This document shows, one piece after another, positions 364 to 32,239 of a stretch of 34,340 nucleotides of DNA (its first letter is position 1; each line of letters begins with the position of its first letter). The notes beneath the pieces were generated by a model. That model worked only from the letters and a program-made list of their open reading frames with translations, ran no database searches and was not told the DNA's origin. The translations under genes and the position numbers were made by a program. The stretch lies in assembly GCA_018725345.1 (NCBI GenBank), contig QLUI01000001.1:1-34340 (forward strand), read 5' to 3'. This stretch comes from Bacillota bacterium (GTDB taxonomy: Bacteria > Bacillota > Dethiobacteria > Dethiobacterales > Dethiobacteraceae).

Positions 364-744
364 CTAACGCTTTGTGTCCAGCAGCAGGCCAATCATTTCT
401 TGGATTTGCGCGGCCAGCCTAAGTAAACGCTCCGGGGGTATTTCACGAATCAGCTCATCAGTCTCTTTGTCGATAACCTGCACCATTACTCTGTCAGATT
501 CGTCATGGATTTTAAAGCGCAGACTGAAACTAAATGCGTCTAAAGCACTGTTTACTTTGCTGACGGCAGTATCTATTTCCGTAGCCGAATGAGACGAAGG
601 ATGAGCTTCCGTGTTAGGGCTAGGGGTTCCTTTAATGCTTTCTTCTTTTTCTCGTGTTTTGCCCGGATGGCTGAGTTCATTTGTAACGTTTCTAAGCCCG
701 TCCGGTGTAATCGCAGACAGGGAATTTGCTGCTCCGATTTTCAC
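364..744 (-). CDS. flaG: FlaG family flagellar protein
   Basis: 126-aa ORF with a GTG start and a GGAGGTG SD 6 nt upstream. The C-terminal region FSLRFKIHDESDRVMVQVIDKETDELIREIPPERLLRL matches the FlaG signature. It lies immediately upstream of fliS. Confidence 0.75.
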   Translation of the reverse strand: MKIGAANSLSAITPDGLRNVTNELSHPGKTREKEESIKGTPSPNTEAHPSSHSATEIDTAVSKVNSALDAFSFSLRFKIHDESDRVMVQVIDKETDELIREIPPERLLRLAAQIQEMIGLLLDTKR

Positions 745-926: not shown

Positions 927-1286
927 GTGAAGGTACAAGGGGTGGATCCTGTCATTATGAGCAGGATTCAGGAAAAAGTAAAAAAACAGTTGGTGCAAGA
1001 TAGCCGACAGGTTGAGTTTGCCAAAGATCGCCAAAACAGCCAAGAGCAAGAACGGCAAGCACCGGATCGAGAAGAATTGGCTGCGATGGTGCAGAAGCTA
1101 AACAAAATGGCAGACTCTTTGGGTATTAATTTGCTCTTTGTCTTGATTGAGGATGATGCTCCTCGGTTGTTTGCGCTCAACAGAACAACGCAGGAGCTGA
1201 TTCATCAGCTCTCTCCCGCAAAAGCCCGGGAAATGTTGACAGAAATGAAAAGCTTTGTAGGTATGTTGGTAGATCAACTTTCATGA
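927..1286 (+). CDS. FlaG-like paralog (hypothetical flagellar protein)
   Basis: The C-terminal half, VQKLNKMADSLGINLLFVLIEDDAPRLFALNRTTQELIHQLSPAKAREML...GMLVD, parallels the FlaG motif of the divergent neighbour at 364-744. GTG start with a purine-rich SD. Confidence 0.45.
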   Translation: MKVQGVDPVIMSRIQEKVKKQLVQDSRQVEFAKDRQNSQEQERQAPDREELAAMVQKLNKMADSLGINLLFVLIEDDAPRLFALNRTTQELIHQLSPAKAREMLTEMKSFVGMLVDQLS

Positions 1287-2460: not shown

Positions 2461-2871
2461 ATGCAGATTTTTAAGGCGATGCAGATTTCCTCATCCGGGT
2501 TGACGGCTGAACGCTTTCGCTTGGATTTGATTGCCAATAATATTGCCAACGCTCATAGCACTCGGACTGAACAGGGTGGCCCTTACCGGCGCAGATCAGC
2601 CGTTTTCGCAGAGAAAATGGATGCCGCCCGCCGCAACCTACAGGGCGTGCGGGTGATGGCAGTAAGCGAAGACCAGACACCGCCACGGTTAGTTTACGAA
2701 CCGGGACACCCAGATGCAGATGCGGCTGGCTATGTGGCTTACCCAAATGTAAATGTGATTCAGGAAATGGTAGATATGATTACGGCCACCAGGGCTTACG
2801 AGGCTAACGTTACAGCTTTAAATGCAACAAAGAGCATGTTTCTAAAGGCGTTGGAAATTGGCAGAGGATAG
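2461..2871 (+). CDS. flgC: Flagellar basal-body rod protein FlgC
   Basis: SSSGLTAERFRLDLIANNIANAHSTRT...TATRAYEANVTALNATKSMFLKALEIG is the canonical FlgC pattern. Confidence 0.92.
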   Translation: MQIFKAMQISSSGLTAERFRLDLIANNIANAHSTRTEQGGPYRRRSAVFAEKMDAARRNLQGVRVMAVSEDQTPPRLVYEPGHPDADAAGYVAYPNVNVIQEMVDMITATRAYEANVTALNATKSMFLKALEIGRG

Positions 2872-2881
2872 GTGAGTCAAA

Positions 2882-3178
2882 ATGAGAATTCAGGGGAACA
2901 ACCCCTTTATCCCGACGCAATGGCAAAAAATTCAGCCGGAAATACAAAGCAGGCAGACGGAGGGCTTTGCGGCTGCGTTAAAAAGCGCCCTAAGCGATGT
3001 GAATAAGCTGCAGCTTCAGGCAGATGAATCTGTTAAAAAGTTGGCTATGGGTCAGGGAGAAGATATCCACCAGGTGATGATTGCGGTTGAGCAAGCTAAG
3101 CTTGCCATGCAGCTGACGGTGCAGGTGCGCAATAAAGTTGTTGAGGCTTATCAGGAAATTTCACGGATGCAGATTTAG
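2882..3178 (+). CDS. fliE: Flagellar hook-basal body complex protein FliE
   Basis: 98 aa with the C-terminal motif IHQVMIAVEQAKLAMQLTVQVRNKVVEAYQEISRMQI. Position after flgC. Confidence 0.9.
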   Translation: MRIQGNNPFIPTQWQKIQPEIQSRQTEGFAAALKSALSDVNKLQLQADESVKKLAMGQGEDIHQVMIAVEQAKLAMQLTVQVRNKVVEAYQEISRMQI

Positions 3179-3261
3179 TGACCAGCCAATTTGCAAGTGA
3201 CAGCTGTCAACTGGCCACGGGTCATCGTTTGCCCAGGACAGGCAGAAAGGGGCAATGAGTT

Positions 3262-4815
3262 TTGGCGGAAGAAAGCCGGGCCGCATTCTCGATGTTTACG
3301 CTACAAGAGCGTTGGCAGCAAATCAGCAAACAAAAGAAGCTAGCTGTGATCATTTTGCTTGTAGCAGGTTTTGTTTCGCTTTTTTATTTGGGGCAGGCAC
3401 TTTCCCGTCCAAGGATGGCGCCTTTGTTTTCGGGATTGGAGCCGGCTGATGCCGGGCGGATTACTGCTCGGTTGCAGGAGCTGAATGTGCCTTATCAGTT
3501 GGCAGATGAGGGTAGAACCATTCTGGTCGGGCAGGATCAAGTATATGAGATGAGAATTCAGTTGGCCAGCGCAGGAGCGCTGGTCGGGGGCAGCGCTGGA
3601 TTTGAACTTTTTGATCGGACACAGCTTGGGGCTACCGATTTTAATAGACGCCTGGATTATCTGCGAGCGCTCCAAGAAGAGCTCCGACGGACCATTGTTC
3701 AGTTGGAAGAAGTTGAGCAAGCCCGGGTACACTTAGCCCTCCCCGAACCAAGCGTCTTTGTTCAGGATACGGCAGAGCCGACTGCGTCGATTGTGCTACG
3801 GCTTAGACCTCTTTCTCGCCTGCAGCCTGAGCAGATCCGCGGGATTGTTTATCTGGTAGTGGGCAGCGTGGAAAACATGACTGCGGAAAATGTGACTGTG
3901 ATTGACACACAGGGAAATATTCTTAGCGATTTAACCACGGAGTTGTCTTCCTCCGGCCAGTTAGCCGAGGCTTCTTTGCGGCAGTTGGAGGTGAGGCGTT
4001 CCTTCGAGAAAGAAATGGAACAGCGCGTCCAGCGGGTGCTGGAGCGGGTTCTAGGTGCGGGTCAGGCGGTCGCTATGTTGACGGCGGAACTTGATTTTGA
4101 TTCCCGTGAATCAAGCATCATCACTTTTGCGCCCGAAGGAGTGCCTCGGAGCAGAACCGTTGCGAGGGAAATATTTGAGGGGACAGGAACCATGCCTGGG
4201 GAAGCAGGTACGGACAGTAATATCCCCGGTTATCCTTTTGCAGTCGGCGGCGGCGATTCTCGTTATGAGCGGGATGATGAAACTATTAATTACGAAATCA
4301 GCGAAACAACGGAGCGGCAGATTCAAGCGCCGGGGCGCTTGGTCCGCTTGCACGCTGCCGTTGTTGTTAATGATAACGGAGGCGTGCTGACAAATGAGCA
4401 GCTCGCGCAGATTAACGAGCTGGTCGAGGCTGCCATTGGTTATCAGGTAGCGCGTGGGGACAGCATCAGTGTGCAGGGAATGAATTTTGATACTTCACAA
4501 CTAGAGGAAGCCAAGCGAGAGATGGACGAGGCTTTGCGCAATGAGCAAAGGGGACAACTTATCTATCTGGGCGTAGCCATTTTGCTCTTGGTTTTGTTTT
4601 TCGTGCTCGTATTGCGGGCTAGAGGAGCACGCCGCGAACGAGAGTTAGAAGCTCAGCTTGCCACAGTGCCGCACATGCCCTTTTTAGAAGAAGCGCCGGC
4701 AATCGGCGAGCTGCCAAGGGAAGAGGAACTTTTGCACAAACGTGTCCGCCAACTGGCGGAGAAGGAACCTGAAGCGGCAGCATATTTGATCCGGGCTTGG
4801 CTGGCTGAAGAATAG
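3262..4815 (+). CDS. fliF: Flagellar M-ring protein FliF
   Basis: 517 aa with an N-terminal TM segment, the YscJ/FliF-type region LNVPYQLADEGRTILV...QLASAGAL, and a C-terminal TM segment plus a FliG-binding tail. TTG start at 3262; ATG 3292 is an alternative. Confidence 0.9.
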   Translation: MAEESRAAFSMFTLQERWQQISKQKKLAVIILLVAGFVSLFYLGQALSRPRMAPLFSGLEPADAGRITARLQELNVPYQLADEGRTILVGQDQVYEMRIQLASAGALVGGSAGFELFDRTQLGATDFNRRLDYLRALQEELRRTIVQLEEVEQARVHLALPEPSVFVQDTAEPTASIVLRLRPLSRLQPEQIRGIVYLVVGSVENMTAENVTVIDTQGNILSDLTTELSSSGQLAEASLRQLEVRRSFEKEMEQRVQRVLERVLGAGQAVAMLTAELDFDSRESSIITFAPEGVPRSRTVAREIFEGTGTMPGEAGTDSNIPGYPFAVGGGDSRYERDDETINYEISETTERQIQAPGRLVRLHAAVVVNDNGGVLTNEQLAQINELVEAAIGYQVARGDSISVQGMNFDTSQLEEAKREMDEALRNEQRGQLIYLGVAILLLVLFFVLVLRARGARRERELEAQLATVPHMPFLEEAPAIGELPREEELLHKRVRQLAEKEPEAAAYLIRAWLAEE

Positions 4816-21083: not shown

Positions 21084-21954
21084 CCAAGCAGAGCGTTTTC
21101 GTCAACTTGCGTTGGCGTCGGACTCAAGGCGGACGATTATTAAACAGAAAAAAATTCCCAGGGTGATTACTGTCACCAGCGGTAAAGGGGGAGTTGGCAA
21201 AACAAACTTGGTGGTTAACTTAGCTATTGCCCTTTCTCGGCTGGGCAAGCGGGTGGCGATTATGGATGCTGACTTAGGTCTGGCAAATGTTGATATTCTT
21301 TTGGGGCTTTTACCGCTGCATAACTTATATGATGTGGTGCAGGGGACTAAATCATTGGAAGATATTGTTATCAGCGGACCGGATGGGCTAAAAATTATCC
21401 CGGGCGGCTCCGGTCTGACGGAAATGGCAAATTTGTCGTCGCCGCAACGAGAGCGACTGATGGATAGCCTGATTGCTTTGGAGAATATGGCGGATATTCT
21501 TTTGATTGACACCGGTGCCGGCCTTTCTCGTGCCGTTTTATCTTTCGTTTCCGCTGCAGATGAACTGATAGTCATCACTACTCCTGAACCTACAGCCATT
21601 ACTGATGCTTACGGATTGATTAAAGTTGTGGCAAAGCATAAACTGCACCAACAGGTGAAGCTGGTAGTGAACCAGGTGAGCAGCAAGGGCGAGGCTGTCA
21701 ATATCGCTGAGCGCTTTGCGGAAGTAAGCCAAAAATTTCTGCAGCAAGATGTCCGTTTCTTAGGGGAAATCTGTAGTGACCAGCAAGTGGTTTACGCGGT
21801 GAAGCAGCAACAACCCTTTCTCACCCTTTTCCCTCGCACCAGGGCAACCCAGGACGTGCAAAATATTGCCGGCAAGTTATTAGAAATTGCTCCGGAAAAA
21901 CCACGTGGGATTAGCGGTTTTTTGAGCCGGCTTGCAAAACTGCTGGAAAACTGA
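21067..21954 (+). CDS. flhG: MinD/ParA-type ATPase FlhG (YlxH/FleN)
   Basis: N-terminal DQAERFR activator helix and the deviant Walker A TSGKGGVGKTN. Position after flhF. Confidence 0.88.
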   Translation: MSSMSDQAERFRQLALASDSRRTIIKQKKIPRVITVTSGKGGVGKTNLVVNLAIALSRLGKRVAIMDADLGLANVDILLGLLPLHNLYDVVQGTKSLEDIVISGPDGLKIIPGGSGLTEMANLSSPQRERLMDSLIALENMADILLIDTGAGLSRAVLSFVSAADELIVITTPEPTAITDAYGLIKVVAKHKLHQQVKLVVNQVSSKGEAVNIAERFAEVSQKFLQQDVRFLGEICSDQQVVYAVKQQQPFLTLFPRTRATQDVQNIAGKLLEIAPEKPRGISGFLSRLAKLLEN

Positions 21955-21968
21955 AGCTCGAAGGGGGG

Positions 21969-22634
21969 ATGGCGATGACAAAAAAGAAGTGGTTATCCGT
22001 CCAGCAAAAAATTGAGATCATGCAACTGCCGGATGGTGAGCGATTTAAGAGTTTAATTCAGGAGCTTGATGGAGAAACAGTTGCTGTTACAGTCCCTTAC
22101 AGGCAAGGGAAATACCTTCTTCTTTACAGCGGTGAAATGGTTAGAGTGGAATTTGTCGTAAGCGACGCAATCTACGGTTTTCAAGCTAAAGTCCTTGGTC
22201 GCAGAAAGTCAAATAATGTGCCACTAGTCTTGCTTTCACGCCCTGCTTTCTTTACCCGCAAGCAGCGCCGCAGCTTTGTACGCTTTCCCATCACCCTTCC
22301 AGTGCGCTTTTATCTTCACCCTCAGTCAGTCGGTCCGTTGACACCGGAAAGTTGTGAGGAAAAGACAGGAAAGACGATTGATATTTCCGGCGGCGGGCTG
22401 CAGATTTACACTAGCACCGCTGTGCAAGTTGGGGCGCAGGTTTTGCTGCGCCTCAAGCTAAATGACGGTCATCCCCAGGAATTGAGTTTAAGCGGCAATG
22501 TAAACTGGGTTACGGAAGATGAGTGGAATCGTTCCGTTCGTTTTGGCGTCTGTTTCCAGGGAATAAGTGAAGCAGCGCAGGAAAGAATTATCTCCTATGT
22601 TTTTAGTATGATGCGCCAAAGAACCCTAATTTGA
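21969..22634 (+). CDS. PilZ-domain c-di-GMP receptor (YcgR/MotI-like flagellar brake candidate)
   Basis: RxxxR motif in QRRSFVRFP and D/NxSxxG motif in DISGGGLQI. The N-terminal half is YcgR-N-like. Position between flhG and fliA. Confidence 0.75.
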   Translation: MAMTKKKWLSVQQKIEIMQLPDGERFKSLIQELDGETVAVTVPYRQGKYLLLYSGEMVRVEFVVSDAIYGFQAKVLGRRKSNNVPLVLLSRPAFFTRKQRRSFVRFPITLPVRFYLHPQSVGPLTPESCEEKTGKTIDISGGGLQIYTSTAVQVGAQVLLRLKLNDGHPQELSLSGNVNWVTEDEWNRSVRFGVCFQGISEAAQERIISYVFSMMRQRTLI

Positions 22635-23371
22635 TGGGGGCGAAACGGATGAGTGGAACTAACCTCTGGTTAAAATACCAGGAGACAAAAGCAGAAGGAG
22701 TGCACAGCGAACTGGTGAGTCAATACCTGCCGCTTGTACGTTTGCACGCAGGGCGTCTGGCGTTGGGCTTGCCGGCCCATGTTAATCGGGACGACCTGGT
22801 GCAAGCCGGCGTGCTGGGACTACTAGAGGCTATGCAGCGTTTTGACCCAAACCGAGGTGTTCGCTTTGAGTCTTTTGCCACACTGAGGATCCGCGGCGCT
22901 ATGCTGGATGAGCTACGGCGTTTGTGTTGGCTACCCCGCTCTCTGCTGCGCCAGATGCGGGAAGTGGATCGTGCTTCCCAGGCTCTGGCTGCTAAACTAG
23001 GTCGAGAGCCGGAGCTTGAGGAAGTGGCAGATTGCCTGCAGATAGCGGTGGAGCAGCTGCGGAAAACAGTAACGATGATAAACTGCGGCACAGTGTTGTC
23101 TATCGAGGACACCTTGTTTGCCGCGCCGGAGACAGAGGGCCAAGAAATAGCGACACTGGATCATTTGATTGTCGCCGAGGAAAAAGAACGCTTGGCTGCG
23201 GCCATAAAGGAATTACCGGAACGTCAGCAACAACTACTAGCCCTTTATTATCAGGAGGAGCTGACGCTGAAGGAAGTAGGGTTGGTGCTAGGAGTATCGG
23301 AATCCCGGGTTTGTCAGTTGCATGCGCGCATTGTAGCGCGCCTGCGCTCCGCCCTGACAGAAGAGTCATAG
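22631..23371 (+). CDS. fliA: Flagellar sigma-28 factor FliA/SigD
   Basis: Region 2: DDLVQAGVLGLLEAMQRFDPNRGVRFESFATLRIRGAMLDELR. Region 4: LTLKEVGLVLGVSESRVCQLHARIV. The more likely start is ATG 22649 (MSGTNLW). Confidence 0.9.
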   Translation: MMGAKRMSGTNLWLKYQETKAEGVHSELVSQYLPLVRLHAGRLALGLPAHVNRDDLVQAGVLGLLEAMQRFDPNRGVRFESFATLRIRGAMLDELRRLCWLPRSLLRQMREVDRASQALAAKLGREPELEEVADCLQIAVEQLRKTVTMINCGTVLSIEDTLFAAPETEGQEIATLDHLIVAEEKERLAAAIKELPERQQQLLALYYQEELTLKEVGLVLGVSESRVCQLHARIVARLRSALTEES

Positions 23372-23622
23372 ACCCCACGGCTAAAGCCGGGGGCTTAGCA
23401 TTTGCCCCACTATGACCAGCCTAAGTCCCACGAGGACTACGTTTACTTAGCCATGACACCCTGGGGTGCTTCTCCAGCTCCAGGCACTGTCGTCCGGACT
23501 AAACAGCGAGTAGGGGTTGTACGAGCAGTGCCCCGGACGCGACAAGCTAAGCTAACATTGGCGAGGAGAGACTAAAAATAGCGTTACCGGCCCCTTAAGG
23601 GGCTCCGAAAGGAGAGAAAAAG
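23372..23622 (+). ncRNA. Candidate IscB omega-RNA (HEARO-type) scaffold; exact 5' end and guide unknown
   Basis: 251 nt with no plausible ORF directly upstream of iscB, which is where IscB omega-RNAs are encoded. It holds many complementary segments: 23404-23409/23462-23467; 23421-23426/23445-23450; the interleaved pairs 23483-23489/23526-23532 and 23491-23497/23533-23539; and the palindrome gccccttaaggggc at 23590-23603. Confidence 0.6.
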
Positions 23623-24927
23623 ATGGCTGTATTCGTACTGGACAAGCACAAGAAACCACTAATGCCCTGCACTGAAAAACGGGCTAGGCTGTTACTCGAA
23701 CGCAGACGTGCGGTGGTGCACAAGATGTCGCCTTTTACTATCCGGCTCAAAGACCGGACGGTAGAACAAAGCCAACTTCAACCGTTACGTCTGAAGTTAG
23801 ATCCAGGTAGCAAAACTACCGGTATCAGCATCTTACAAGAAGCAGTGTCCGAGAAAGCAGATGTCGTCTTTTTGGCGGAGCTGCGCCACAAGCCGGGCAT
23901 CAAAGAGAAGCTGGCCGACAGAAAGACACAGCGGCGGAATCGTCGCAACCGCAAAACACGCTACCGCGAGAAACGGTTTGATAATCGTACCAGGCCAAGC
24001 GGCTGGCTGCCGCCGTCGCTTCAAGCCCGGGTTAATCAGGTCGAGAATACCGTAAACAAATTGCAAAAGCTGTTGCCCATAACCGCAATCAGCACCGAAC
24101 ATGCCAAATTCGACACACAACTTATGCAAAACCCTGCCATTGCCGGTATCGAGTACCAGCAAGGCGAACTTTTAGGTTACGAGGTTCGGGAATATCTATT
24201 AGAAAAATGGAAACACAAATGCGCCTACTGCCGTACCGCCGACACACCGCTGGAAATAGAGCACATTACCCCCAAATCAAGGGGCGGCAGTGACAGAATC
24301 AGCAACCTAACATTAGCCTGTCGCCCGTGCAACCAAGCCAAGGGCAACAGGACGGCAGAAGAGTTTGGCCACCCTGAAATCCAAAAGCAGGCCAAATTAC
24401 CGTTAAAAGACGCGGCCATGATGAACGCCACGCGGTGGGCATTGTTTAACAGGCTAAAAGAAACTGGCCTCCCGGTCGAGTGCGGTACTGGCGCCAGAAC
24501 CAAGAAACAGCGTATAGAACATAAACTCCCGAAAACCCATTACTACGATGCGTGTTGCGTGGGTGCCGGCACCCCGGCAAATCTTGCGATCAGGCAAAAG
24601 TATGTTTCCATTTGGAAAGCGATCGGCAGAGGCACCAGGAGGATGTGCAACACAGACAAATATGGTTTTCCGAAAGGTCACAGACAGCGCAAGAAGAATC
24701 ACTTTGGTTTTCAGACAGGCGACATCACAGCAGCGGCTATTCCTCGCGGTAAATATCAGGGCATTCACACTGGCCGAGTAGCGGTTAGAACGAGTGGATG
24801 CTTTGATCTAAAAGACATTGCCGGCATCCGTATTTGTCAAGGTATCGGCCACAAACATTTTCGGCTGCTGCAAAGAGCCGGCGGATGGCATTATGGCAAA
24901 GCGAAAATAGCATATAAAGGAGAATGA
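23623..24927 (+). CDS. iscB: IscB RNA-guided nuclease (PLMP, RuvC-I, Arg-rich bridge helix, RuvC-II, HNH, RuvC-III, C-terminal domain)
   Basis: 434 aa. KPLMPC at aa 11-16. LKLDPGSKTTG (D60). RKTQRRNRRNRKTRYREKRFDNR. ISTEHAKFD (E159). HNH insert: CAYC...EIEHITPKSRGGSDRISNLTLACRPCNQAKGN. KTHYYDA (H306, D309). SD AAAGGAGAG at 23608-23616. Confidence 0.85.
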   Translation: MAVFVLDKHKKPLMPCTEKRARLLLERRRAVVHKMSPFTIRLKDRTVEQSQLQPLRLKLDPGSKTTGISILQEAVSEKADVVFLAELRHKPGIKEKLADRKTQRRNRRNRKTRYREKRFDNRTRPSGWLPPSLQARVNQVENTVNKLQKLLPITAISTEHAKFDTQLMQNPAIAGIEYQQGELLGYEVREYLLEKWKHKCAYCRTADTPLEIEHITPKSRGGSDRISNLTLACRPCNQAKGNRTAEEFGHPEIQKQAKLPLKDAAMMNATRWALFNRLKETGLPVECGTGARTKKQRIEHKLPKTHYYDACCVGAGTPANLAIRQKYVSIWKAIGRGTRRMCNTDKYGFPKGHRQRKKNHFGFQTGDITAAAIPRGKYQGIHTGRVAVRTSGCFDLKDIAGIRICQGIGHKHFRLLQRAGGWHYGKAKIAYKGE

Positions 24928-24990
24928 CGAAGGCGCGCTTCCTCCCCATAGATGAATCCAGGGGCTTTTTGCGCTACGTCTGGTGAAGAG

Positions 24991-25446
24991 ATGGTATACT
25001 TGCTTTTGTTAATCGGCTTAGCGCTGGCTTTGCTGGCTTCCGCTAAACTGGTTCAAAAAAATAGAGAGCCGTTTGACGACGCTCTGCGTGCTGAGGTAAG
25101 CAAACCACTAAATCGCGAATTGGTGATTCTGTTTGAGTTGCAGGAATCGGTGGAAGCTGCTCTGGCCGAGCTGGACGAAAAAAATCAGGTTTTTCAGCAT
25201 TTGGTGTCTCGGTTGGAAAAGCAGCGTGCGGCAGTAGAGCACAGGTTGCAGCAATTAGAGAGGCTCATCAGCCGAGCGGAAGCTGTGTTGAAAAACCCGG
25301 TAGCTCGGGAGGCACCGGAAGGAGATCGCTATCGCCGTGAACAAATCTATCGGTTGGCAGACCAAGGCAAAGATGTGGCGGATATGGCGGTGGAGCTTGA
25401 ATTAGGACGGGGTGAGGTGGAATTAATACTCGGCTTGCGAAAATAG
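24991..25446 (+). CDS. Membrane-anchored coiled-coil protein with a C-terminal HTH-like segment (positional analog of B. subtilis swrB; DUF2802/DUF6115-like)
   Basis: MVYLLLLIGLALALLASA TM segment, then a coiled coil, then IYRLADQGKDVADMAVELELGRGEVELILGL. I start it at ATG 24991, where the homology to the cheA-upstream repeat ends. The ORF-track start at 24952 lies inside the IscB element end. Confidence 0.6.
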   Translation: MVYLLLLIGLALALLASAKLVQKNREPFDDALRAEVSKPLNRELVILFELQESVEAALAELDEKNQVFQHLVSRLEKQRAAVEHRLQQLERLISRAEAVLKNPVAREAPEGDRYRREQIYRLADQGKDVADMAVELELGRGEVELILGLRK

Positions 25447-25469
25447 GAGAATTTAATTGGCATTTCTTA

Positions 25470-25634
25470 TTGGGTTTCGGGTTGGGTCTCTTGCTGGCTG
25501 CTTTGCTTATCTTGCTGCAGGGTACAAGGCCTATTCCTGCGGCTGAGGTGGAAAGGATGGCGCGGGAACAGGGTATGGTCTATCCACAAGAAGTTGTTCC
25601 TTTTACAGAGGGGGAACCGGTCACGGAGCAGTAA
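25470..25634 (+). CDS. Possible small single-TM protein (start codon unclear)
   Basis: The open frame reads ...FLLGFGLGLLLAALLILLQGTRPIPAAEVERMAREQGMVYPQEVVPFTEGEPVTEQ*. It has protein-like composition, but only a TTG at 25470 without a clear SD, and it falls below the ORF-track size cutoff. Confidence 0.25.
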   Translation: MGFGLGLLLAALLILLQGTRPIPAAEVERMAREQGMVYPQEVVPFTEGEPVTEQ

Positions 25635-25656
25635 ATTTTGCGCAAAGAAAGGTGGG

Positions 25657-26415
25657 ATGACTTTGATTAGAGGACTTTACACAGCAGCAAGCGGGATGAT
25701 GGTTGAGTCTGCCCGTCAGGAAACAATCACCAATAATTTGGCAAACAGCGAGACTACAGGTTTCAAGCGAGATTTGGCTCTGCAGCGTGCCCAAGCAGAA
25801 TTGCCGGTGCTACGAGTGGGCGATAGCAATCACTTGCCATTGCAGCCGGTCATCGGAACTTTGGGTACAGGTTCGCTGGTGGCTGGCATACACACCGTTC
25901 ATGAACAAGGGGTGCTGCGGGAGACGGGCAGGAAACTGGATCTATCCTTGGCAGGTCAGGGTTTTTTCACGGTAGAAACGGCTCAAGGTTTACGGTTCAC
26001 ACGTAACGGCGCTTTCACACTCGATGCCGACGGTTTTTTGCGTACTGACGCAGGACACCGGGTTATGGGAACGGAAGGATATTTGCAAATTCCCGCAGGG
26101 GAGCTGACGGTGAATGAAAACGGCAGGCTTTTTGTGGACGGAGCGCCGGTTGGCCAGCTGCGGCTGACTTTGTTTGCGGAACAGGAAATGCTTAGCAAGC
26201 AGGGGGAATCTTTGTTTGATGCCGGCGGACAGGTTGCACTGCCGGCTGCCGCTCAGGTGAAACAGGGATTTCTTGAGTCAGCCAATATCCAGGTTATTCA
26301 GGAAATGGTGAGAATGATTGCTACACAGCGCGCTTATGAAACGAATCAACGCGCACTGCAAGCCCAAGATGAGTTATTAGGCAAAGCCGTTAATGAAATC
26401 GGTTCACTTCGCTAA
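25657..26415 (+). CDS. flgF: Flagellar basal-body rod protein, FlgF/FlhO-like
   Basis: N-terminus MTLIRGLYTAASGMMVESARQETITNNLANSETTGFKRD. C-terminus GFLESANIQVIQEMVRMIATQRAYETNQRAL. ATG 25657 follows an AAAGGTGGG SD. Confidence 0.85.
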   Translation: MTLIRGLYTAASGMMVESARQETITNNLANSETTGFKRDLALQRAQAELPVLRVGDSNHLPLQPVIGTLGTGSLVAGIHTVHEQGVLRETGRKLDLSLAGQGFFTVETAQGLRFTRNGAFTLDADGFLRTDAGHRVMGTEGYLQIPAGELTVNENGRLFVDGAPVGQLRLTLFAEQEMLSKQGESLFDAGGQVALPAAAQVKQGFLESANIQVIQEMVRMIATQRAYETNQRALQAQDELLGKAVNEIGSLR

Positions 26416-26429
26416 GGGGGGAATAGCTG

Positions 26430-27206
26430 GTGTTACGCAGCCTTTGGAATGCGGCTTCTGGCATGAGGGCGCAACAGGAAAAAATTGATGTGACTGCCAA
26501 TAATATTGCTAATGTGAACACCACCGGCTTCAAGAAAAAAACGATAGTTTTCCACGACTTGCTTTACCAGTCCTTGGAGCGGCGGGGCAATGCGGTGGCG
26601 CCGGCTTTTGCGGGAGGCCGGCCGAGCATGGCGGGTGTGGGCAGTGCGGTGGGTGCAGTTCGTGCCGATATGCGGGCTGGCACATATCTGCAGACCGGCA
26701 GGGCGTTGGATTTGGCTGTGGTGGGTGAGGGATTTTTTCGGGTGGAACTGCCGGATGGCAGAATAGCATATACCCGTGATGGTTCCTTTTCCCTGGATGC
26801 GGCAGGAAACTTGGTGACTGCACAGGGACAGCGGGTGATCTTTCCCGCTCTTCCCTTGGGGCAACAGGAAATAAAGATCTCTCCCCAGGGGCAGGTGTCT
26901 GCGGTTGAACCAGATGGAGATCAGCTGGCGGTAGGGACGGTGTCGCTAGCCTATTTTAATAATCCTCAGGGACTGGAACAGTTTGGTGGAAATCTGCTGC
27001 TTGCCACAGAAGCATCCGGCGAGGCAGAAAACAGAGCCCAGGGAAACGCTACAAAGCTTATGCAGGGCTATTTGGAAAGTTCCAATGTCGATCTTAGTGA
27101 AGAATTAGTGAATCTTTTGGTCAGCCAACGCGCTTTTGAACTAAATTCCAGAGCGTTGCGGACATCAGACGAAATGTGGAGTATTGCAAATCAAATACGG
27201 CGCTAA
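26430..27206 (+). CDS. flgG: Flagellar distal rod protein FlgG/FlhP-like
   Basis: N-terminus MLRSLWNAASGMRAQQEKIDVTANNIANVNTTGFKK. C-terminus GYLESSNVDLSEELVNLLVSQRAFELNSRAL. Confidence 0.88.
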   Translation: MLRSLWNAASGMRAQQEKIDVTANNIANVNTTGFKKKTIVFHDLLYQSLERRGNAVAPAFAGGRPSMAGVGSAVGAVRADMRAGTYLQTGRALDLAVVGEGFFRVELPDGRIAYTRDGSFSLDAAGNLVTAQGQRVIFPALPLGQQEIKISPQGQVSAVEPDGDQLAVGTVSLAYFNNPQGLEQFGGNLLLATEASGEAENRAQGNATKLMQGYLESSNVDLSEELVNLLVSQRAFELNSRALRTSDEMWSIANQIRR

Positions 27207-27283: not shown

Positions 27284-27802
27284 ATGCGCTTTTCTCTTCA
27301 GCAAAATCAAAAGCAAGAAAGTGGCAGCCTCAAAGATACGGCAGCCGACTATAACAGGCAAGGTGTATCGGCCATACTGCGCGGCGCAGACCATGAGGCA
27401 ATTTACTATCTGCTCTCAGCCGCAGTTTGTGAGCCTGATTATTGGCTCGCCTTTTATAATCTGGGGAACTGCTGGGCCAAACTCAAAGAAAACCAGGCAG
27501 CACTGTGGGCCTATGAACAGGCTGTTCGGAACTGCTACCATCATGCGCCACTTTTTTTAAATCTAGGGATTGTTTGCTGCCGGGAAGGAGAGGCCAAGCG
27601 GGCACTGCCGTACTTGGAACAGGCTTTGTGCTTAAATCCCGCAGACGCAAAGTGCTCCGCTGCACTGGGGTTTGCCTATTATGGGCTTGAAGAATGGGGG
27701 CTTGCCTGGCACTGGTATAACAAAGCTTTCCGATTGGATCCCCACAACGCTGACTATAAAACAAGTATGCGAATTGTGGAAAAAAGAATCAGTGACGGCT
27801 AA
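27284..27802 (+). CDS. Tetratricopeptide (TPR) repeat protein
   Basis: Repeated A-x-x-Y/F...A...P TPR-like helices, for example LAFYNLGNCWAKLKENQAALWAYEQAV and ALPYLEQALCLNPADAKC. Confidence 0.7.
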   Translation: MRFSLQQNQKQESGSLKDTAADYNRQGVSAILRGADHEAIYYLLSAAVCEPDYWLAFYNLGNCWAKLKENQAALWAYEQAVRNCYHHAPLFLNLGIVCCREGEAKRALPYLEQALCLNPADAKCSAALGFAYYGLEEWGLAWHWYNKAFRLDPHNADYKTSMRIVEKRISDG

Positions 27803-27937
27803 GCAAGACTGTCTGCCCTTCCTTGCCTATCGCAATACGACTTTTACCCACAGCGTCACTGATTTTTAGGATGCTTTTGCCAACCATAAAAATAGTATTT
27901 TCGTAAGCCTTGTCCACATCAATCCAGCCTTTGCTGC

Positions 27938-28186
27938 TTACCTGGAGAGTGGTGATCGCACCAGCCTCCGAAGCCGGCTTCCTTGACGTAAATCGCTTTC
28001 GCCCGGACCGTTCCGCCGCGCTAAAGCTTGCTGGATTGCGCTCTCCCTGATACCATAACAGATGCCCGCTTTAGTCATGGCATCAAGGACTTGACTGATC
28101 TCAACCTGAGCTTCATGATTTATAGAAAGTGCCGCCAACATAGCGTTTTGGCTGATGGTAAGCGTCCATTGGTTGTCTTGAGCCAC
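27938..28186 (-). pseudogene. Relic of a FapA/DUF342 (flagellar assembly protein A-like) gene: only the N-terminal ~55 aa are recognisable
   Basis: TLTISQNAMLAALSINHEAQVEISQVLDAMTKAGICYGIRESAIQQAL matches the DUF342/FapA N-terminal pattern. The frame then degenerates into Arg-rich junk and stops. Full-length family members are several hundred aa. Confidence 0.4.
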
Positions 28187-32080: not shown

Positions 32081-32239
32081 GTCAAGGTATCGGCCACAAA
32101 CATTTTCGGCAGATGCCTTGAGCCGGCGGCTGGCATTATGGCAAAGCGAAAATAGCATAGAAAGGAGAATGACGAAGGCGCGCTTCCTCCCCATGGATGA
32201 ATTCAGGGGCTTTGTGCGCTACGTCTGGTGAAGAGATGG
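32081..32239 (+). mobile_element. Truncated, degenerate copy of the IscB element 3' end (last ~92 nt of iscB plus ~67 nt of right end)
   Basis: By eye, a gap-free alignment to 24836-24994 with about 10 mismatches in 159 nt. The iscB reading frame here reaches a premature stop (QGIGHKHFRQMP*). Confidence 0.85.

Follow-up and report, generated by a model that had tools for sequence, protein, structure and literature searches.

A probable recent insertion of a non-autonomous IscB element, with its omegaRNA and an intact nuclease gene, in the flagellar and chemotaxis operon of a Dethiobacteraceae bacterium

The stretch considered here, referred to throughout as the window, is the whole of positions 1 to 34,340 (34,340 nucleotides (nt), forward strand) of contig QLUI01000001.1 in assembly GCA_018725345.1, from a Bacillota bacterium of the Dethiobacteraceae. 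Between the flagellar gene fliA and a gene of the DUF6115 family lies a region encoding the RNA-guided nuclease IscB. We regard it as very probable that this region is a non-autonomous element of the IS200/IS605 type, carrying an omegaRNA and an intact iscB gene, and that it has recently entered the flagellar and chemotaxis operon of a Dethiobacter-like bacterium. The features on which the argument turns are the following.

23365-24982, + strand: whole IscB element, non-autonomous and of the IS200/IS605 type, 1,618 bp, delimited from relatives' copies and empty sites
23349-23364, + strand: predicted guide CCGCCCTGACAGAAGA, host DNA (fliA codons) directly 5' of the scaffold
23365-23371, + strand: element-derived 3' end of fliA, which completes a GAG codon, adds a Ser and supplies the TAG stop
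23365-23576, + strand: omegaRNA scaffold, Rfam HEARO (RF02033), 130.9 bits against a gathering score of 83
23373-23393, + strand: stem-loop CCCCACGGCTAAAGCCGGGGG, the first omegaRNA hairpin (HEARO stem 2)
23610-23616, + strand: ribosome-binding site (RBS) of iscB, AGGAGAG, read from the sequence and kept in related copies
23623-24927, + strand: iscB open reading frame (ORF), 434 aa, with PLMP motif, split RuvC, bridge helix, HNH and a beta-rich C-terminal domain
24926-24980, + strand: interrupted hairpin of the iscB-distal end (the left end, LE, in the transposase frame), GACG..GCGC..CCCC-loop-GGGG..GCGC.CGTC
24983-24986, + strand: GTGA, candidate target-adjacent motif (TAM; TCAC in the transposase frame), abutting the distal end of the element
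24983-24994, + strand: 12-nt flank GTGAAGAGATGG, the same as the flank of the mini element and holding the DUF6115 start at 24991
32081-32227, + strand: mini derivative of the element, 147 bp, consisting of the last 92 nt of iscB and the distal end, in the cheW-cheA spacer

Element boundaries and empty sites

The window was compared with relatives' copies of the element in other contexts, with fliA-anchored loci of sister species (L002, 95% nucleotide identity to the window; L004, L005, L178 and L181, 86-90%), and with conspecific contigs obtained by exact-protein look-ups of neighbouring genes. Among the conspecific contigs, L183/L188 (GCA_048539515.1) and L184 (a Logan assembly) lack the element, and L101, L185/L190 and L186/L189 carry it.

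Copies from close relatives, P0002 and P0004 (82-83% identity) together with others from metagenomes, have unrelated surroundings and diverge right outside the ends. Such copies start with GTCA(TAG)ACCCCACGG and finish with GCGCTACG(T/G)C(T/A)G; in the window the element accordingly runs from GTCATAG at 23365 to GCGCTACGTCTG at 24982, and its end sequence is GTCATAGACCCCACGGCTAAAGCC. The sister loci can be aligned continuously with the window as far as 23366, and the alignment resumes at 24983, with only a spacer of ~44-50 bp in between; the 2-nt ambiguity of the boundary arises because GT begins both the element and the right flank. The ends are discrete and have neither terminal inverted repeats nor a target-site duplication; GAAGAG, present at both junctions, was considered as a duplication and rejected, as other copies place the ends elsewhere.

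One consequence of these boundaries is that the 3' end of fliA now belongs to the element. Empty alleles end GAAGAG TGA (or TAA) and the window reads GAAGAG TCA TAG, so that the fliA stop at 23369-23371 is element sequence replacing the native stop. The next gene, of the DUF6115 family, begins at the ATG at 24991, as in all empty alleles. An earlier note on this DNA, made from the sequence alone, had given the span as 23372-24994 and set the element in the gap after the fliA stop; both statements have to be revised, since copies and empty sites define 23365-24982 and the stop codon lies inside. Its proposal that the element had been inserted after fliA, on the same strand, is borne out by the empty sites in relatives, and the alignment of fliA intervals that it suggested recovered such sites in sister species and in conspecific strains, defining both ends.

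Empty sites occur in all five sister loci listed above (L002, L004, L005, L178 and L181). More telling are the conspecific contigs L183/L188 and L184, which have flanks 99.5-99.9% identical to the window on both sides and no element; there the fliA allele reads CCGCCCTGACAGAAGA followed directly by GTGAACAGTGGCGAGTTAATGACCAAAATAGCGAAGACATGGGAGTGAAGTTATGGTATAC. Together with the occupied conspecific contigs, these empty alleles are the strongest evidence for a mobile element over a resident gene of the flagellar locus. As the flanks differ by only 0.1-0.5% from the empty alleles, the insertion must be very recent. The flagellar location itself is not special, because relatives' copies are also found inside unrelated operons, co-oriented with their neighbours: one between adk and rpsF, another in a tad pilus operon, between its cpaB-like and cpaE-like genes.

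In a Dethiobacter lineage of metagenome-assembled genomes, the spacer between fliA and the DUF6115 gene holds another insert, ~410-460 bp long (L003, 4740-5190; L179/L180, 1387-1847), which contains many GGGCGGGTTTGAAACCCGCCC inverted repeats and matches no Rfam family. This spacer appears to be a recurrent insertion site.

The IscB protein

Four independent lines (Pfam, NCBIfam, PDB and the predicted fold) identify the ORF at 23623-24927 as a full-length IscB. The Pfam RRXRR profile matches in full over residues 3-181 (E=1.3e-68, 230.7 bits against a cut-off of 25) and three HNH models match, among them HNH_5 (3e-14) and HNH (4e-13; 49.6 bits against 21.4). The NCBIfam equivalog NF040563, 'RNA-guided endonuclease IscB', is matched over the whole profile by residues 3-314, with 449.8 bits against a cut-off of 175. 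A phmmer search of PDB sequences returned only chains of IscB, IsrB and small Cas9, the IscB chains with E=9e-46 to 1e-27, and a PDB search with a 64-sequence profile gave a best value of 1.6e-69. An exact-sequence look-up of the protein found no match.

The AlphaFold2 model built from an alignment of 64 homologues has a pLDDT of 80.7 and a pTM of 0.78; an earlier model from an 11-sequence alignment reached a pLDDT of 45 and was discarded. The best Foldseek matches of the model are 8csz, 9liq, 9k30, 8dmb and 7xht (E=1e-24 to 1e-18, TM ~0.5-0.7), of which 8csz, 9liq, 9k30 and 7xht are complexes of IscB with omegaRNA and target DNA. Compared with the solved IscBs, the protein is only 18-22% identical over the structural alignment and is shorter (434 versus ~496 aa).

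The motifs quoted in the earlier note are all present where it had placed them: KPLMPC at residues 11-16, the RuvC residues D60, E159, H306 and D309, an Arg-rich helix at ~100-122, and H214 (in EIEH), N228 and N237 of the HNH domain. All seven RuvC and HNH residues fall in columns that are invariant or at least 90% conserved among the 64 homologues, and in an alignment with a solved IscB, D60 and H214 fall on its corresponding motifs. Against three relatives, the ratio of nonsynonymous to synonymous substitution rates (dN/dS) of iscB is 0.09-0.26, the closest copy being 91% identical with a dN/dS of 0.26. The earlier note had called the nuclease intact from these same residues, and the profile, PDB and fold matches agree with it: the profile search it had proposed placed RRXRR, HNH and NF040563 above their cut-offs, and the structural comparison it had proposed returned IscB-omegaRNA complexes as the best matches.

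The omegaRNA and its guide

HEARO (RF02033), the RNA now named IscB omegaRNA, is the single Rfam family matched in the whole window. The match covers model positions 1-211 of 211 and stops 46 nt before the iscB ATG, confirming the upstream omegaRNA that the earlier note had supposed; in eight related loci HEARO matches at the same position relative to iscB. Model position 1 coincides with the element boundary. In contrast to the Rfam model, which ends ~45 nt before iscB and leaves out the palindrome at 23590-23603, the omegaRNA probably extends to ~23605 and takes this palindrome in.

The stem-loop at 23373-23393 is almost invariant even where IscB is only ~50% identical. The earlier note had read it as a candidate terminator of fliA with a weak T-tract; we reject this, as it is an omegaRNA stem and transposon end conserved in every copy, and terminator-like structures in the region are not raised in number (8, against 6.1 +/- 2.9 in shuffles). 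The stem-loop is likely to serve also as the subterminal hairpin recognised by TnpA at the omegaRNA-proximal end (the right end, RE, in the transposase frame), where folding as single-stranded DNA gives z = -3.4. This second role would fit the finding that the same hairpin closes the end of a TnpB element in locus L088. There, and in the loci up to L096 (~2860-4030), a TnpB (OrfB_IS605) element lies on the opposite strand ~50 bp past the IscB element, and its end bears the same CCCCACGGCTAAAGCCGGGGGCTT hairpin as the 5' end of the IscB omegaRNA, implying that one TnpA family mobilises both kinds of element. In a distant copy (L117, ~60-150), the first ~45 nt of the omegaRNA-side end are tandemly duplicated, with GTCATAGACCCCACGGCTAAAGCCGTGGGCTT occurring twice.

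The position of the predicted guide is set by HEARO model position 1, and its length of 16 nt follows published IscB omegaRNAs. The left flanks of independent copies have nothing in common, as expected of a guide region. Because the guide consists of the final 16 nt of fliA and is not part of the element, it could be transcribed only from a host promoter upstream, on the fliA side. A search of the + strand from 21900 to 26500 turned up no sigma-70-like promoter, and a pattern of the sigma-28/SigD type (TAAA-N13-17-CCGATA) gave no match in the window, a result that is uninformative on separate downstream promoters. Read-through transcription of omegaRNA and IscB from the fliA side, as the earlier note had proposed, is a reasonable reading of this arrangement.

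The target motif and the homing configuration

At eight of eight independent sites the right flank starts with GTGA or GGTGA, and GTGA is therefore likely, from the flanks, to be the TAM. It is present at each of the two native candidate sites of the empty allele. In the transposase frame the motif is NTCAC, and the terminal GTCA on the omegaRNA side is TGAC there, one base different. The candidate TAM overlaps the native TGA stop of fliA; relatives in which fliA ends in TAA (L005 and L178) do not have it.

In the conspecific empty alleles, and in L002 and L004, the 16-mer of the guide is followed by GTGA, whereas in the occupied allele it is followed by GTCA. We infer from this the full homing configuration described for the family, in which the occupied allele should escape the nuclease and the empty one should be cut.

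The frame used here is that of Meers et al. (bioRxiv 10.1101/2023.03.14.532601), who report that the omegaRNA side of IscB elements is the transposon RE and that TnpA and IscB both recognise the TAM, which lies directly against the LE. According to the same study, tnpA lies near only ~1.5% of iscB genes and the elements are preferentially co-oriented with the upstream gene, which makes the solitary and co-oriented state seen here the norm for the family. The NTCAC motif resembles the TTCAT motif of GstIscB (bioRxiv 10.1101/2023.03.14.532601).

The mini element at cheA

A second, much shorter insertion, in the cheW-cheA spacer, came to light when the window was searched for the sequence of the element end; it is 93.7% identical to 24836-24982. 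It starts with GTCA like the full element and is directly followed by GTGA. Without it, the cheA site reads GACTGAG followed by GTGAAGAGATGGACACC, both in sister species and in the conspecific empty strain (99.5% identical); the mini element is thus a clean, scarless insertion next to GTGA, made without duplication and polymorphic between strains. The start of cheA at 32236 is confirmed by a 100% identical database protein of 665 aa.

Five of the ten differences between the mini element and the intact copy cluster at 32111-32119, and four of these clustered substitutions turn mismatches into pairs, raising the left-end stem from 6/10 to 10/10. On this pattern, the mini element looks like a miniature derivative, akin to a miniature inverted-repeat transposable element (MITE), that has evolved a hairpin of its own, and not like a relic formed in situ. 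With the MITE-like and palindrome-associated (PATE-like) miniatures of IS200/IS605 it has in common that it keeps the distal end and the 4-nt GTCA terminus, is inserted cleanly next to GTGA and varies between strains; it differs in having the new 10-bp stem in place of the usual omegaRNA-side hairpin.

Two ATGs inside the insertion sequence ends, at 24952 and 32197, are in frame with the downstream genes (the DUF6115 gene and cheA, respectively), 39 nt before the true starts, and as a result gene callers extend these genes into the element (164-aa calls in L185 and L186).

Weighing the insertion model

The model that we favour can be set out as follows. A Y1 TnpA encoded elsewhere would have inserted the element as single-stranded DNA beside the TCAC/GTGA that overlaps the native fliA TGA. 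RNA reading through from fliA would then supply, in its 5' part, CCGCCCTGACAGAAGA as the guide and, in the next ~210-240 nt, the scaffold, and IscB would be translated from its own RBS. With GTCA after its protospacer, the occupied locus would be protected from cleavage by the IscB-omegaRNA complex; the complex would cut the empty allele or the donor joint, in which the 16-mer is followed by GTGA, and recombination with an occupied copy would restore the element.

Several observations weigh against this model. No Y1_Tnp/TnpA was found by Pfam scans of window ORFs of at least 100 aa, as the earlier note had stated for Y1/HUH TnpA, and none appears in the gene lists of related loci; apart from IscB, the window ORFs of this size that have a Pfam match belong to flagellar or chemotaxis families only. 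The element is non-autonomous, as are almost all IscB elements. The hairpin of the distal end is weak on energy (z = -1.1, no better than shuffles), its sequence being conserved across copies. In the protein, S69, K101 and H198 depart from columns at least 90% conserved among the 64 homologues, the only such departures and all non-catalytic, and the TAG stop of the family has become TAT at 24913-24915, adding four residues (YKGE) before the frame ends at TGA. These changes may have reduced nuclease activity.

A further difficulty lies in the right junction. The element was placed immediately 5' of the first GTGA, but the insertion has left a scar: the 44 bp of spacer lying between two GTGAA repeats are gone (compare L183, 2449-2504), and 24989-24990 read AG where the conspecific empty alleles have TT. 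This TT>AG change is the only pair of adjacent mismatches in ~8.5 kb of flank, which elsewhere shows ~1 difference per 300 nt. A canonical TnpA insertion does not yield a 44-bp loss together with a 2-nt change. The junction consists of the element end joined to GTGAAGAGATG, and its 12-nt flank GTGAAGAGATGG is native at cheA; the conspecific empty fliA allele instead has GTGAAGTTATGG, preceded by the 44-bp spacer. On the sequences compared, the most economical account would be a canonical insertion at the first GTGA and then, as a secondary event, one templated repair or template switch on the end-plus-flank of the mini element 7.2 kb downstream, a single event that accounts for the 44-bp deletion and both substitutions together. 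A broader form of this idea, that repair templated by insertion sequence ends has moved an RBS and start-codon context of the host (GGTGAAGAG-ATG) between two operon junctions, we put forward as a speculation that is probably wrong in this form. Were it correct, the transplanted GGTGAAGAG-ATG would let the element sit in an operon without silencing the downstream gene and, together with a guide read through from fliA, both the expression of the nuclease and the tolerance of the element would be wired into the flagellar operon.

The main rival for the junction, which we disfavour, is that the fliA copy did not arrive by TnpA at all. Break repair or template switching (or horizontal gene transfer with recombination) would have copied the element with 8-12 nt of flank (GTGAAGAG-ATGG) from a cheW-cheA-type site, replacing ~52 nt of the fliA spacer at once. 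The occupied right flank does equal the native cheA flank over 12 nt where the conspecific empty allele has GTGAAGTTATGG and keeps its full spacer, and the two changed bases are the sole clustered mismatches in the ~8.5 kb of flank. However, the left junction is an exact canonical terminus 5' of the native GTGA, as transposition predicts and which illegitimate recombination would have produced only by luck (there is a 2-nt microhomology), and the cheA copy in the window, at 6.3% divergence, could at most have been the template for the last ~25 nt. We therefore consider an origin by copying unlikely. The mini copy at cheA was also considered as the remnant or donor of the whole fliA copy and rejected, since the two are 6.3% apart, although neither insertion is as old as the 0.1-0.5% divergence from the empty strain. 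The idea that a cheA-site guide had directed off-target cleavage and so led to the fliA insertion was rejected as well, the 16-mers before the spacer GTGAs being unlike AAACTGATAGACTGAG.

The observations that weigh against the insertion model could also be taken to mean that the element is an inactive relic, neither a working nuclease and guide pair nor a mobile unit: the stop codon has been lost with the gain of a 4-aa tail, three residues depart from conserved columns, the right junction is rearranged and TnpA was not found in the 34 kb. Against this, the near-identity of the flanks to conspecific empty alleles (0.1-0.5% difference) makes the insertion very recent, the catalytic residues, RBS, full omegaRNA and both ends are intact, and the closest copy is 91% identical, with a dN/dS of 0.26. 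A relic in this sense seems to us quite improbable, less credible still than the copying just discussed.

Comparison with known systems

The nearest comparators are the IscB-omegaRNA elements of the IS200/IS605 superfamily (OMEGA systems), such as the GstIscB element of Geobacillus stearothermophilus and OgeuIscB (PDB 7UTN/7XHT). The element shares with IscB-omegaRNA elements the domain order (PLMP, RuvC-I, bridge helix, RuvC-II, HNH, RuvC-III and a C-terminal TAM-interaction domain), a HEARO-type omegaRNA upstream on the same strand with its guide outside the element, the lack of tnpA, co-orientation with the upstream gene and a short motif at the far end. Unlike them, it has overwritten the stop codon of a host gene, 44 bp of host DNA were lost beside it, and its candidate TAM comes from comparison of flanks. 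In sequence, the testable features of IscB and IS200/IS605 elements are present with the exception of scarless insertion at fliA; the distal hairpin is conserved in sequence but folds no better than shuffles.

TldRs are nuclease-dead relatives of TnpB that repress flagellin genes; they belong to the TnpB/Cas12 lineage and are fixed in place. The element resembles them in placing a transposon-derived RNA-guided protein beside flagellar genes, but it belongs to another protein family and its nuclease residues and mobility signatures are intact. By analogy with TldR, the site inside the flagellar operon and the identity of the guide to the 3' end of fliA might suggest that IscB has been domesticated and now regulates the flagellar genes under RNA guidance. 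This is extremely improbable, given that the element is present in some strains and absent from others of a single species, that it has complete transposon ends with a candidate TAM, that all RuvC and HNH catalytic residues are retained, and that related copies lie in unrelated loci (adk-rpsF, the tad pilus operon).

The element is no new kind of system, its solitary, co-oriented and read-through-dependent organisation having already been described for the family. What the locus offers is a natural IscB 'homing' architecture, in which occupied and empty alleles occur in one species and the empty one carries the predicted guide match and the inferred TAM. It thereby provides a testable guide and TAM pair for a compact IscB of 434 aa that is only distantly related to those of known structure, and a population suited to measuring drive-like retention.

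Other observations

Four metagenome contigs with an identical P0002 IscB (L082-L085) show all four pairings of two left and two right flanks; these combinations are most likely chimeric assemblies through the repeat. The repeat likewise accounts for the runs of N with which the element ends are marked in loci L001 and L189.

Compared with its counterparts in sister species, the gene fapA (flagellar assembly protein A; 27789-28186, - strand) has lost ~1.08 kb internally, and an 82-aa FapA_N ORF remains. A link between this deletion and the insertion sequence was rejected, as the empty conspecific strain carries the same deletion. At the start of the window lie two divergent ORFs of the FlaG family, at 364-744 (- strand) and 927-1286 (+ strand).

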